61,618 bases of DNA, filler included, from 6 parts of 6 records of this genome joined end to end with filler, not necessarily neighbours in it; one strand, 5' to 3'; shown: positions 58,092-61,358, counted from the whole stretch's first letter. Numbers and translations are program-made. The notes: generated by a model not told the origin, from the sequence alone.

Positions 58092-58108
58092 CCGAATTCG
58101 GAGTCGAG

Positions 58109-58270
58109 ATGCGGCGCATCACCTGGGAGCAGTTCTGGGCATTGCGCCCTGACCTGCGGCCCGTGGCGAATGATAACGCCGTCGACTTCAGCCATAGTGG
58201 GCGGGCGGCTTCGGTCGACGGCGATCAGGTGGAACACATTACTCATCCACGCGGTCAACTTGCGGCCTGA
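58109..58270 (+). CDS. 53-aa small protein with ANDN motif and LAA C-terminus
   Basis: Below the ORF-track size cutoff; GGAG at 58100-58103; MRRITWEQFWALRPDLRPVANDNAVDFSHSGRAASVDGDQVEHITHPRGQLAA*; the frame is also open to the contig edge. Confidence 0.65.
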   Translation: MRRITWEQFWALRPDLRPVANDNAVDFSHSGRAASVDGDQVEHITHPRGQLAA

Positions 58271-58305
58271 TGGTTAATACTTCGTTTCGACTCCACTCGC
58301 ATGAT

Positions 58306-58380
58306 GGGGGGCGGGGAAACAAGTCTCCGCCCCTCCGCCGCGGACCAGCGTCCCCCGGAAGGGAAAAGCGCGTGCAAAAT
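58306..58380 (+). other. cos-like packaging site A
   Basis: GGGGGG..AAGTCT-N15-GGACCAGCGT; matches site B. Confidence 0.4.
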
Positions 58381-58507
58381 GGAAAAGAAAAAGTCGGGGG
58401 CCTGCTCGAAGTCCAGAAGCGCCCCGCTGCGGTACCGGCCGCACAGCAAAACACGAAAGCCCGCAAGTTTTCAGAATTTTATCCAAGCGCCCGCAGAGGC
58501 GCAACCA

Positions 58508-59341
58508 ATGGACCTTGCCAAAATGAAAGCATCAGATTTCAAAACGCTAGCCGAACGCCGCGAATGGCTGGAAAAGCAGGCTGCAAACGACAACCCGCGC
58601 CGCGCCAAAACCACCAAGCCGCGGCACGCGGAAATCGCAACGCAGTGCCGGCCCCTGCTGGTTTGGCGCGAACTTACGTCGCCAGCGGATTGGACTGCGA
58701 TACCGGCCAATGACAACAAAGACGACAAACCGTCCTACGACGCAATTCTGGAACAACGTCCGCGCATCAGCGAGATGCTGCGCGCGCTGAAGGACGTGAA
58801 GTTCAGAACCGTGCGGCACGCCAAACTTGGCGGCGGAGGTGCCGACCACGTTGTCCCGGCTAGCGGAGATATCGAGTACGGCACCGGCCAACGCGGCAAG
58901 CCGCCTTGCATGGTGCGCCTTGGCGATTTGCGGTTTTCAAATGGCCGGAACGTTGAACGTGGTTTGGTCATAAAGGATGGCGTCCTCCAGCGCGGCGACA
59001 TCCGGATTCCACTAGGCGGCTTGGTAAGTTGCAAGGGTTATAAGGCGCGCGAGCGATACGGCGAACCAAAGGGCGAACCGGGCGAGCCAGCCGTGCCGCG
59101 GCGACCAACGAACCCAGGCGCAATGACTTTCGCAGATCCGCTGGAGGCGGCTGAAACGGCGGAGCGCGTTCGCGAGATGGTGAAACCAGAAACCGCGGCA
59201 GTTTTAGACTGCGCCTTGCGTGCAGCGAACTTTGCCGACATTGGGCGGCTGCAAGGGTATCGCGGCAAAAACGCCGAACGCCGCGGAAAGCAAGCGCTGC
59301 TCGCCGCGTGCGCTGAATTGAAGGCAGCGCTTGCGGCGTAA
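58508..59341 (+). CDS. Phage hypothetical protein, possible late-gene regulator (C-terminal sigma4-like HTH)
   Basis: AGAGG RBS; C-terminal VLDCALRAANFADIGRLQGY..AERRGKQAL; two ANDN motifs; ends AALAA. Confidence 0.6.
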   Translation: MDLAKMKASDFKTLAERREWLEKQAANDNPRRAKTTKPRHAEIATQCRPLLVWRELTSPADWTAIPANDNKDDKPSYDAILEQRPRISEMLRALKDVKFRTVRHAKLGGGGADHVVPASGDIEYGTGQRGKPPCMVRLGDLRFSNGRNVERGLVIKDGVLQRGDIRIPLGGLVSCKGYKARERYGEPKGEPGEPAVPRRPTNPGAMTFADPLEAAETAERVREMVKPETAAVLDCALRAANFADIGRLQGYRGKNAERRGKQALLAACAELKAALAA

Positions 59342-59414
59342 CAATTTCTGCCTCCAGTCCCTTTTTCGCACCTTGAACGGTAAATAGCGGCAAGAGTCCA
59401 ATGGTTAGATTTTG

Positions 59415-59442
59415 AGCCCGTGTTTCGGCGCGGGCTTTTTTT
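59415..59442 (+). terminator. Intrinsic terminator upstream of the capsid operon
   Basis: AGCCCGTGT-TTCG-GCGCGGGCT followed by TTTTTT. Confidence 0.75.
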
Positions 59443-59476
59443 CATCCTTTTCATTCCCGCATAACTGGAAATTCCA

Positions 59477-59965
59477 ATGAACAAGACCGCTTACGTGGCG
59501 ATGTTGTCGCGGCGTTTGGGCATTCCGGTGTCCCGGATTGACGGGTTGCTTGAACGCCTACACGCCGCTGGCGCGGTACCGCCGACGCGTGCGAAACGCC
59601 ATCCTCCACCGATTGACGAACATGACGCCGTGGCAATTCTTCTGGCCGTGCTGGCGGACCGCGGTCTGGAAACAGCCGCCGACAATGCCTGGACGCTGGG
59701 CGCTGCGCACTGCGACGGACAGCGCTTCGATGCGTTTCTTGCGGAGCTGTTGTACGGCGCGCCGCGTCATGTTGGTCACCTGATTATCCATCCCGCAGGC
59801 GCGTCCATCGTGGTGGATGCGGTGCACACCGAATTTGGCGAGCGCAGCGACACGCCAGCGCGGTACGTCCCAGGCGGCGTGTTGATGGCCATTGCTGCCG
59901 AACTGCAAGGCGCGACGCCGCGGGACGCAGACGCGCTGGCAACTATAACCAAGGTTTTTCAATGA
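59477..59965 (+). CDS. Hypothetical protein, possible N-terminal HTH
   Basis: 162 aa; LSRRLGIPVSRIDGLLERLHAAG; ATGA-coupled to the next gene. Confidence 0.65.
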   Translation: MNKTAYVAMLSRRLGIPVSRIDGLLERLHAAGAVPPTRAKRHPPPIDEHDAVAILLAVLADRGLETAADNAWTLGAAHCDGQRFDAFLAELLYGAPRHVGHLIIHPAGASIVVDAVHTEFGERSDTPARYVPGGVLMAIAAELQGATPRDADALATITKVFQ

Positions 59966-60258
59966 CATCCGCAATCGACGAACTTGCGCGGCTCGCCGTC
60001 GAGAATGACGAGCCAGTTGCGCTCAACCCTGCGCAGATGGTGGCGAAGCTCACCAAAGCCGGCGAGCCAGAAATTGCCGCGAAAATCGCGCTGGCTTTCC
60101 GTGACCGCCACTTTGAACTGTCGCCGCAAGTGGAAGCCGCTGCGCGCCGCATCAAAGCAGAACGCGCCGCGGAAACCTTCACGCGCATCAACGAAGCAAA
60201 CGCCACAAATCATCCGCTCCCGCAATGGGTGCGAAACGAATTGGAGAACATTCAATGA
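59962..60258 (+). CDS. Hypothetical helical protein (98 aa)
   Basis: ATGA overlaps at both ends couple it to the capsid gene. Confidence 0.7.
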   Translation: MTSAIDELARLAVENDEPVALNPAQMVAKLTKAGEPEIAAKIALAFRDRHFELSPQVEAAARRIKAERAAETFTRINEANATNHPLPQWVRNELENIQ

Positions 60259-61358
60259 CGAACCACGTAGCAGCAGCCATCGAAAAAGTTGGCAAGGAAT
60301 TTAAGGAAACCGCCGGCGACCTTTCGGCCCGTCTTTCGGAGCTAGAACGCCGCGCGGCGCGCTCTTCGGACGATCACGATTACGTGGCGAACGACAACCA
60401 CGAGTCCCTTGGCCATATCGTCGCTAACGATGACGCTGTGCGCAACTTGTCCAGCGATTTCCGCGGCAAGGCCGTCGTCAAGCTGCGCGGTGAGAGCGCA
60501 GCCATCACATCTTATCCAGCAACCGTTGGCAGCAATACCTCTGCTGGTACGTCGCTTGTGCCGGCGCATCGCGTACCAGGTATTGTGACGCCATATCAGC
60601 GGCGCATGACGATCCGCGACCTTCTGCGTACGGCGCGCACCACTTCGAATAACATCGAGTGGCCTCGAGAGACGAATTACATCAACAACGCGAATGTTGT
60701 GTCCGAAGGCGAGTCAAAGCCGTATTCGGAACTCGAGTTCGAGCTCGAGAACGCGCCGGTTCGCACCATCGCGCATATGTTCAAAGCCAGCCGTCAGATC
60801 CTTGACGACGCCGATGCGCTCGCGAGCTACATCGATCGCCGCGGCCGCTACGGCCTCCAGTTCAAGGAGGAGCTACAGCTTCTCAAGGGAGACGGCACCG
60901 GTCAGAACATTGAAGGCATCATCCCGCAGGCCCGAGCCTATGAGACGGCTCGAAACTCGACGGGAGACACGCCGCTCGACGTTCTAAACCACGCTATTAG
61001 CCAGGCCGAAGAAAGCGACATTCCGATCACGGGTATCGTTCTTTCCAAGAAGATGTGGCGCGACATGTTGGGAATCAAGGATGGCGACGAGCGTTATCTC
61101 AGCGGCGGCCCGTTCGGCACCACAGCGGCACAGATCTGGGATCTACCCGCGATCGGCAGCAACGCCATGGCTGACGGCGAATTCCTCGTCGGAGCTTTCG
61201 AGGATGGTGCGACAATCTTCGACCGTCTGGAAGCGGAGGTTCTGGTATCGAGCGAGAATGACGACGACTTTGAGCGTAATTTGTTCTCGATCCGCGCGGA
61301 GCAGAGACTGGCACTTGCCGTTTTCAGGCCGGATTCATTTGTCACCGGCCAATTCTAA
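60255..61358 (+). CDS. HK97-family major capsid protein
   Basis: GGAG RBS; short coiled-coil delta domain; TIRDLL, V.EG..KP.S, VRTIAH..KASRQILDDA, EE.QLL.GDGTG, D.F.RN..IRAE.RLALAV.RP. Confidence 0.93.
   Translation: MTNHVAAAIEKVGKEFKETAGDLSARLSELERRAARSSDDHDYVANDNHESLGHIVANDDAVRNLSSDFRGKAVVKLRGESAAITSYPATVGSNTSAGTSLVPAHRVPGIVTPYQRRMTIRDLLRTARTTSNNIEWPRETNYINNANVVSEGESKPYSELEFELENAPVRTIAHMFKASRQILDDADALASYIDRRGRYGLQFKEELQLLKGDGTGQNIEGIIPQARAYETARNSTGDTPLDVLNHAISQAEESDIPITGIVLSKKMWRDMLGIKDGDERYLSGGPFGTTAAQIWDLPAIGSNAMADGEFLVGAFEDGATIFDRLEAEVLVSSENDDDFERNLFSIRAEQRLALAVFRPDSFVTGQF

Follow-up and report, generated by a model that had tools for sequence, protein, structure and literature searches.

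In Escherichia coli, the adaptor SspB binds the initial seven residues in the tag AANDENYALAA, which is added by transfer-messenger RNA (tmRNA) in trans-translation, and it tethers to the N domain of ClpX by means of its own tail (PMC9963277). Hard-wired protease signals of this kind are already known on a few phage regulators, and the closest precedent that we found is that of mycobacteriophage BPs and its relatives, where ssrA-like C-terminal tags on the repressor and the integrase destabilise these proteins and set the lysis-lysogeny outcome; in that report (PMC4557955), the tag is solely a C-terminal protease signal of two regulatory proteins, lost on integration, and no adaptor-binding part is described. 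The stretch of DNA analysed here, called the window, has 61,618 nucleotides and is made up of six contigs joined by N spacers; its last contig (58092-61618; 3,527 bases, 59.5% GC) carries on its + strand five open reading frames (ORFs), 957 residues in total, among them a phage capsid gene, a gene for a 277-residue protein that we call orfB, and a small ORF of 53 residues, and these three share the tetrapeptide ANDN. We propose, with a probability of about 0.58 and from sequence comparison and modelling, that ANDN, or more fully [A/P]-A-N-D-N, is a linear motif copying the adaptor-binding start of the tmRNA tag, through which its carriers would plug into the SspB-ClpXP pathway of the host.

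The BPs system shares with this one a hard-wired, ssrA-like C-terminal degron in phage genes, with the difference that here the adaptor-binding part is the conserved unit, distributed over roughly 15-18% of the ORFs, crudely called, of two phages. Like the tmRNA pathway, the present system has an ANDN start usually preceded by A, an (L)AA end, SspB in the host genomes, and docking modelled in its peptide groove; unlike it, ANDN is encoded in the genes instead of being added by trans-translation, is often internal or N-terminal and multicopy, has different flanking residues, and in the window is separated from the other half of the tag by 34 to more than 200 residues. SspB also delivers substrates that bear no ssrA tag, E. 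coli RseA in the form of its N-terminal fragment being one, and there are engineered SspB-dependent tags such as DAS+4. These achieve adaptor-dependent degradation by combining an SspB-binding stretch with a separate or weakened C-terminal ClpX signal, and the split in orfB and the weak -TNA, -TKA and -EAS ends in its relatives would work in that way, but they concern one host protein or synthetic constructs and not a family of phage proteins. By this analogy, the split halves in orfB and in the small ORF (34 to 252 residues) would resemble adaptor-delivered substrates more closely than a real tag. Capsid-bearing phage satellites are known as well, namely elements like the capsid-forming phage-inducible chromosomal islands (cfPICI), with which the relatives of this element share a small integrative format with a capsid gene (16.9 kb at tRNA-Phe in Neorhizobium), and from which they differ in carrying tape-measure and tail-fibre-like genes and in having no known helper phage.

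A prior description of an adaptor-binding tag fragment across many phage proteins was not found in a search that excluded supplementary files and most subscription journals; what came up on ssrA-like tags dealt with actinophages and synthetic biology, and an SspB in a preprint on gene-transfer agents proved to be an acronym with another meaning. If the proposal is true, viruses would be using bacterial proteolysis in a way that is new, through one host adaptor-docking motif borne by many phage proteins of unrelated kinds. Alphaproteobacterial SspB would likewise gain a large natural set of clients beyond the products of tmRNA, and natural adaptor-dependent degrons of graded strength would become available for rhizobia and Agrobacterium. 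Phage 16-3 in Sinorhizobium meliloti offers a tractable system for the idea.

ANDN in the window and in the orfB family

An earlier note on this DNA, made from the sequence alone, had claimed that a satellite carries a split tag, an SspB site plus a ClpX site, hard-wired into its proteins. A six-frame scan recovered the four ANDN sites and the one ANDD that it had listed (Table 1), the four ANDN all on the + strand of the last contig, and gave no ANDN in any of the six frames of the other five contigs (58 kb), which bears out its remark that their real coding sequences lack the motif. Over the five ORFs of the last contig, 0.0145 occurrences are expected against the four observed; none of 20,000 within-protein shuffles reached three or more, and in a post-hoc control any tetrapeptide at all occurred at least four times in 130 of 20,000 shuffles. 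Among the 11 other orderings of A, N, D and N, NDNA alone is present, once. The four codon strings all differ, as had been stated, and homologues keep the motif, so that the claim of conservation at the peptide level stands, and these sequence comparisons support peptide-level selection on ANDN. The ANDD of the capsid fared otherwise: the note had listed it after the four motifs, and we leave it out of the copies because homologues align ANDE, ASDE, ANSD or ASAE at that place, where it looks like part of a conserved helix. The two C-termini were also read correctly, QLAA in the small ORF and AALAA in orfB, with ANDN lying 34 residues from the end in the former and 211 or 252 residues in the latter; the window proteins thus do not have a tag-like spacing (about 12-13 residues from ANDN to the C-terminus).

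orfB has 42 homologues at E<=0.001, every named one of them from Hyphomicrobiales (Nitratireductor, at 84% identity, Mesorhizobium, Neorhizobium, Tianweitania and Shinella); at least one ANDN occurs in 39 of the 42 and two in 17, and 29 end in LAA. In an alignment of 30 sequences of the family (A1), N68, D69 and N70 are nearly invariant and the LAA end is present in 29, while at the first orfB site roughly one sequence in two reads ANDN; many relatives have a third site, after 'PKGA', that the orfB of the window lacks, and two proteins have an additional N-terminal AANDN. The AlphaFold2 model of orfB has a mean predicted local distance difference test (pLDDT) score of 74.9 and falls below 50 in the segments 28-35, 63-77 and 193-205, which match the three ANDN sites of the family, and therefore the motif lies in variable, probably disordered linkers. 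The alignment check suggested in the earlier note, which asked whether ANDN persists in such linkers, thus came out in its favour, since the motif persists or reappears at three of them; on the model, this location probably fits a short linear motif.

No Pfam family matches orfB, phrog_36072 (of unknown function) covers its C-terminal part (1.2e-10), and a fold search of its model against the PDB gave no match at E<=0.001 among the 179 listed. Because the LuxR-type helix-turn-helix (HTH) and sigma-factor folds appear at a probability of 0.12 or less, our HTH-like reading of the C-terminus remains a guess. The gene lies directly upstream of capsid or packaging genes in all relatives, and its product may be an unstable regulator of late genes, for which the fold search gives no significant support.

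The small ORF has no stop before the start of the contig and so may be longer than 53 residues. It is probably a real gene, because a relative in Neorhizobium (L002 8439-8597, with an orfB of 49% identity) keeps 'RRISWAEFYAQRPDLRAANDN' at the same place, within a conserved core that reads 'RRI(T/S)W..F...RPDLR..ANDN'. Its QLAA end, to which the earlier note gave weight, is not kept in this sole homologue seen, which ends in GGTKE. No Pfam or PHROG family matches the small ORF, and the idea that its ANDN and LAA make it a tmRNA-like gene was rejected since ARAGORN gives no tmRNA in the window, and no tRNA either.

The capsid protein matches PF05065 (Phage_capsid; 1.1e-50, residues 98-367) and phrog_10 (3.9e-64). 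Among the 120 homologues listed, 40 have ANDN at residues 34-52, following 'ELEKRAAR', and the looser pattern xND[NDE] occurs in the first 90 residues of 81/120, vs. 13/120 in the remainder of the protein.

The motif in related loci, phages and prophages

A genome scan with orfB alone gave no relatives, and with alignment A1 it gave six loci, in whose six-frame translation all 21 of 21 ANDN lie on the coding strand of the element. The complete chromosome of Neorhizobium sp. CSC1952 (4.9 Mb), scanned with the DNA pattern GCNAAYGAYAAY for ANDN, has 20 pattern sites vs. one for the reversed control; one of the 20 is the tmRNA gene, nine fall in long host ORFs, and five lie within a 16.9-kb element, where about 0.07 would be expected under an even spread. 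In Rhizobium sp. 16-449-1b, 62 kb of 16-3-like prophage hold 23 of the 54 pattern sites. The motif is as dense or denser in full temperate phages, with 16 ANDN in the first 50 kb of Sinorhizobium phage NV1.1.1 and 15 in that of Rhizobium phage 16-3, and it is therefore not the satellite trait that the earlier note made of it; nor is Caulobacter, its reference host, the relevant one, the relevant host being a member of Hyphomicrobiales. Lambda, Pseudomonas phage D3 and the lytic Caulobacter phage Cd1, one phage each, have no ANDN per roughly 50 kb. In the genomes of rhizobia and Agrobacterium, ANDN density would be a cheap annotation marker of phage-derived DNA.

By crude ORF calls, the motif is borne by 12 of the 67 ORFs of NV1.1.1 and by 11 of the 74 of 16-3. 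The carriers come from unrelated families: C5 DNA methyltransferase, PrimPol-DUF3987, ResIII helicases, HNH endonucleases and deoxynucleoside monophosphate (dNMP) kinase, and also a sigma-70 protein, DUF669, replication proteins of the AAA_25 family, portal proteins, capsids and a protein with HTH_17 that is excisionase-like. The frequency of C-terminal AA under the same crude calls (NV1.1.1 16/67, 16-3 8/74, lambda 7/71, D3 2/65 and Cd1 0/45) is weak as independent evidence.

Pooling 18 loci and 366 kb gave 86 distinct instances of ANDN, which between them use 23 codon strings out of a possible 32. Directly before the motif stands A in 48 instances, P in 21 and V in six, whereas A stands there in none of nine Neorhizobium host proteins. 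The last tenth of the reading frame holds 26 of the 86, and 18 lie within 16 residues of the C-terminus, eight of them at exactly 11; of these 18, the final residue is A in 16 and the final two are AA in 11, for example AANDNQPVRAAA before the stop codon. Whole-tag look-alikes close their proteins with AAANDNQPVRAAA, with AANDNLMRAIEAYAA in an orfB homologue, with PANDNHRRSEENNLAA in a methyltransferase and with AANDNAPATAAA in a portal protein. These near-terminal instances, which appear to be complete look-alikes of the tag, of tag-like length and in ordinary genes, are the strongest comparative evidence.

Two further observations concern the same phages. Helicase-like proteins with tandem ANDN end in an acidic tail, DDEVPF in NV1.1.1 (L037 16923-18677) and in a 580-residue frame of 16-3 (L039), and ADDIPF in the Rhizobium prophage (L030 1297-3198); this tail presumably resembles the C-terminal tail of the single-stranded DNA-binding protein and may be a second copied docking motif. 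The 16-3-like prophages also have an early gene for a trypsin-like serine peptidase (PF13365, 7.2e-25; L028 13953-14513; p036 in phage 16-3), and related prophages encode an S78 prohead protease.

Host tags, SspB and the competing explanations

In the genomes of four hosts of related elements, ARAGORN detected tmRNA genes of the two-piece kind, with the tags ANDNNAKEYALAA, ANDNYAEARLAA (two genomes) and ANDNFAPVAQAA, and all four tags start with ANDN and end in AA. SspB (PF04386 above cut-off) is encoded in 5/5 host genomes of related loci, and in the 4/4 genomes examined (L043, L042, L044 and L041; G002-G005) the sspB gene lies 130-160 bases downstream of the two-piece ssrA on the same strand. 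The Neorhizobium SspB matches the solved SspB structures of Agrobacterium and Caulobacter (2nys 7.7e-89, 2qas 2.7e-36, 2qaz 1.7e-35), and the alphaproteobacterial SspB is taken to behave like the E. coli form. A complex of two copies of Neorhizobium SspB residues 1-128 with orfB residues 14-84 was modelled in three runs, which scored 0.68, 0.67 and 0.68 against 0.01 for the best of three controls, with at least 64% contact agreement and a partner pLDDT of at least 49; the mark that it passed is also passed by 51/78 solved complexes and by 2/108 mismatched pairs. Confident contacts involve orfB 24-31 (QAANDNPR) and 64-73 (AIPANDNKDD), and each motif meets the same SspB residues of one copy (40, 56, 59-60, 64-67, 69-72, 86-90 and 106), so that in the model the two motifs fill the two grooves of the SspB dimer. 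The docking of the orfB motifs in the peptide grooves is modelled only.

Under the proposed mechanism, the substrate-binding domain of the host SspB, in its alphaproteobacterial form, would bind ANDN, and the C-terminal tail of SspB would then tether the carrier to ClpX; orfB could occupy both grooves of one dimer with its two motifs. Carriers that also end in (L)AA, such as orfB and the small ORF, would be degraded by ClpXP, and so their level would follow the free capacity of SspB and ClpXP. In the relatives, both halves would often be fused into a complete C-terminal copy of the tag of 11-15 residues. That the carriers are degraded, and that this serves for timing or for the control of dosage, we infer; in the case of the capsid, the clearing of unassembled subunits or the soaking up of SspB is possible. 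Thus, of the split tag claimed in the earlier note, the SspB site is upheld by its identity with the host tags and the LAA end is kept in 29/42 orfB homologues, while the capsid without AA and the tails of portal proteins stay unexplained by it. A wider proposal, which we put forward tentatively and consider doubtful, is that temperate phages and small capsid-bearing elements of Hyphomicrobiales place a sizeable share of their proteome, including replication, modification, regulatory and even virion proteins, under SspB-ClpXP by one portable motif. This would tie phage development to the load on the trans-translation and ClpXP machinery, as a saturable, proteome-wide timer or stress sensor whose brake abundant late proteins such as the capsid could release by absorbing SspB.

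Several points weigh against the copying of the tag. The capsid does not end in AA, the portal proteins of relatives bear ANDN tails, and the destruction of structural proteins such as these is without obvious benefit. The spacing in the window is not that of a real tag, with ANDN and the C-terminus 34 residues apart in the small ORF and at least 211 in orfB, and the C-terminus of orfB closes a confidently predicted helix, which may restrict the access of ClpX. Outside the core, the second residue after ANDN is P in 28/86 phage motifs vs. A in all four host tags, and the first is seldom aromatic in the phages vs. Y or F in three of the four tags. As for the model, a like complex, Caulobacter SspB with an ssrA peptide (2qaz), has been solved, and the pass may for that reason be memory; in addition, the model ran without an alignment of orfB, and a dimer with a disordered peptide is unlike the calibration set. 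The co-folding that the earlier note had suggested speaks for it by the score of 0.68 vs. 0.01 and by the seating of both motifs in the grooves, with that reservation. Most loci were retrieved via orfB homology, which biases the sample to one phage group. The match with the tag is shown in the hosts of related elements, and in the genus that comes closest to the other five contigs the tag is a different one, ANDDSYALAA. Finally, counting the host-tag motifs in lambda and D3 gave ANDE 0 and ANDD 1, and tag mimicry as a general phage trait was rejected as it was not seen in lambda, D3 or Cd1, one phage each; SspB mimicry, if real, is restricted to a lineage on present sequences.

Two alternatives survive best, and we regard them as equally improbable. 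The first is that ANDN binds SspB for competition and not for self-destruction: abundant carriers, such as the N-terminal region of the capsid and the multivalent orfB, would saturate SspB or ClpXP, with the result that further tagged proteins, whether of the phage or of the host, would be stabilised in late infection or that the clearance of tmRNA-tagged products would be blunted. It would account for ANDN in structural proteins that are presumably strongly expressed and do not end in AA (the window capsid and 40 of the 120 homologues listed), for the two or three motifs of orfB, two of which the model seats on the two grooves of one dimer, and for the 68/86 instances away from the C-terminus, and it is already an accepted notion that substrates waiting in a queue saturate ClpXP (PMC12013620). 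However, a single abundant decoy would do, yet the motif is spread over many ORFs of NV1.1.1 and 16-3 (12/67 and 11/74), and the strong class of AA-ended C-terminal copies looks built for degradation.

The second is that ANDN is read by something other than SspB, a phage-encoded partner or another host protein, and that its likeness to the tag is coincidental or partial. The phage consensus [A/P]ANDNxP departs from the tags outside the four core residues, the very N-terminus of a protein and the proteins of the virion are among the places where the motif is seen, and a shared phage-encoded reader is possible because most ANDN-rich loci have, through sampling, an orfB-like gene in common. On the other hand, four host tags have exactly these core residues, the A in front of them corresponds to the alanine added by tmRNA, the C-terminal versions are tag-like in length and AA-ended, and the SspB complex passes with controls at or below 0.01; moreover, the small element shows no candidate reader, and orfB, in the manner of a client, has the motif itself, in linkers that are disordered.

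Much less probable than either is that ANDN is a cleavage site of a prohead or other phage protease in head assembly. In HK97-type phages, the prohead protease removes the N-terminal region of the capsid, which is where the motif lies in this capsid, and it is found at the C-termini of portal proteins too; related prophages do encode the S78 prohead protease and the trypsin-like peptidase. But proteins outside the virion make up most of the carriers (C5 methyltransferase, PrimPol, helicases, HNH endonucleases, dNMP kinase, the sigma factor and the excisionase-like HTH protein), no protease came up in those genes of the small element type that were scanned, and positions a few residues from a terminus are poor processing sites.

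Chance, composition or a DNA-level repeat is next to negligible as the origin of the copies. Three sites of the Neorhizobium element do share 84-100% of a 19-nt stretch (family D3), but the shuffles yielded no set of three copies, the synonymous codon strings are diverse (23/32 in use), every site lies on the coding strand and in its frame, and unrelated families carry the motif while the three control phages lack it; by codon diversity and frame, the DNA-level repeat is ruled out.

The element, its relatives and its source

The tag-copying proposal concerns three of the five ORFs, and Table 1 gives them together with the two ORFs that separate orfB from the capsid gene. Family libraries gave merely a sub-threshold TrmB HTH match for the first of these two. 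None of five window proteins has an identical entry in the protein collection searched.

Table 1. Reading frames of the last contig and their motifs, in window coordinates
Feature	Position	Strand	Motifs and remarks
Small ORF, 53 aa from ATG 58109	58092..58270	+	ANDN 58166-58177; C-terminal LAA 58259-58267
orfB, 277 aa	58508..59341	+	AANDN 58580-58594 (residues 25-29), its ANDN at 58583-58594; ANDN 58706-58717 (residues 67-70); C-terminal LAA 59330-59338
162-aa ORF	59477..59965	+	ANDN absent; positional equivalent of 164-203 aa ORFs in relatives (synteny with L033, L002)
98-aa ORF	59962..60258	+	ANDN absent; synteny with L033 and L002
HK97-family major capsid protein, 367 aa	60255..61358	+	ANDN 60387-60398 (residues 45-48), N-terminal of the Pfam domain; ANDD 60423-60434

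The IMG/VR relative L033 and the Neorhizobium element have a common gene order of orfB, two small ORFs and capsid, and additionally encode cold-shock-domain, HNH, tape-measure and tail-fibre-like proteins. No portal, terminase or protease gene was found among the part of the ORFs of L002 and L033 that was scanned. The element of Neorhizobium sp. CSC1952 that holds the homologues of orfB and of the capsid gene is bounded by two perfect direct repeats of 51 nt at a distance of 16,916 bp (L046 1758-1808 and 18674-18724), the right-hand repeat being the 3' part of tRNA-Phe; another IMG/VR relative (L035) encodes a PF00589 match. Neither attachment sites nor an integrase are visible on the 3.5-kb contig itself. 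Many contigs with close capsid homologues measure 10.8-12.1 kb, and the closest orfB homologue among the matches listed is on a contig of 11,550 bp, so that the element may be a discrete one some 11 kb long. Taken from these comparisons of sequence, it is plausible that the element of the window is a capsid-bearing satellite.

The proteins of the last contig are 84-90% identical to those of Nitratireductor type. A set of 41 genomes, 37 being of good quality, that are relatives of the other five contigs (1-57991) gave no member of the orfB family, and the genome nearest to those contigs (G001) has no match to the DNA of the last contig. In the nearest genus, two complete genomes have a one-piece tmRNA with the ANDDSYALAA tag. 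Because of that tag and of the absence of the orfB family from those 41 relatives, the last contig most likely belongs to a Nitratireductor-like organism of the same sample, different from the source of the other five contigs.

Beyond the capsid gene, a further ORF begins with an ATG 29 bases before the end of the contig (window 61590-61618), at a place where relatives have a cold-shock-domain protein. Inside the gene of 409 residues with which the Neorhizobium element begins on its left, a 23-nt repeat is present four times (L046 2652-2770), the copies having 74-100% identity to the reference copy and a spacing of 24-39 nt; by their sequence, they look like iterons, which would point to an origin of replication within a replication-protein gene.

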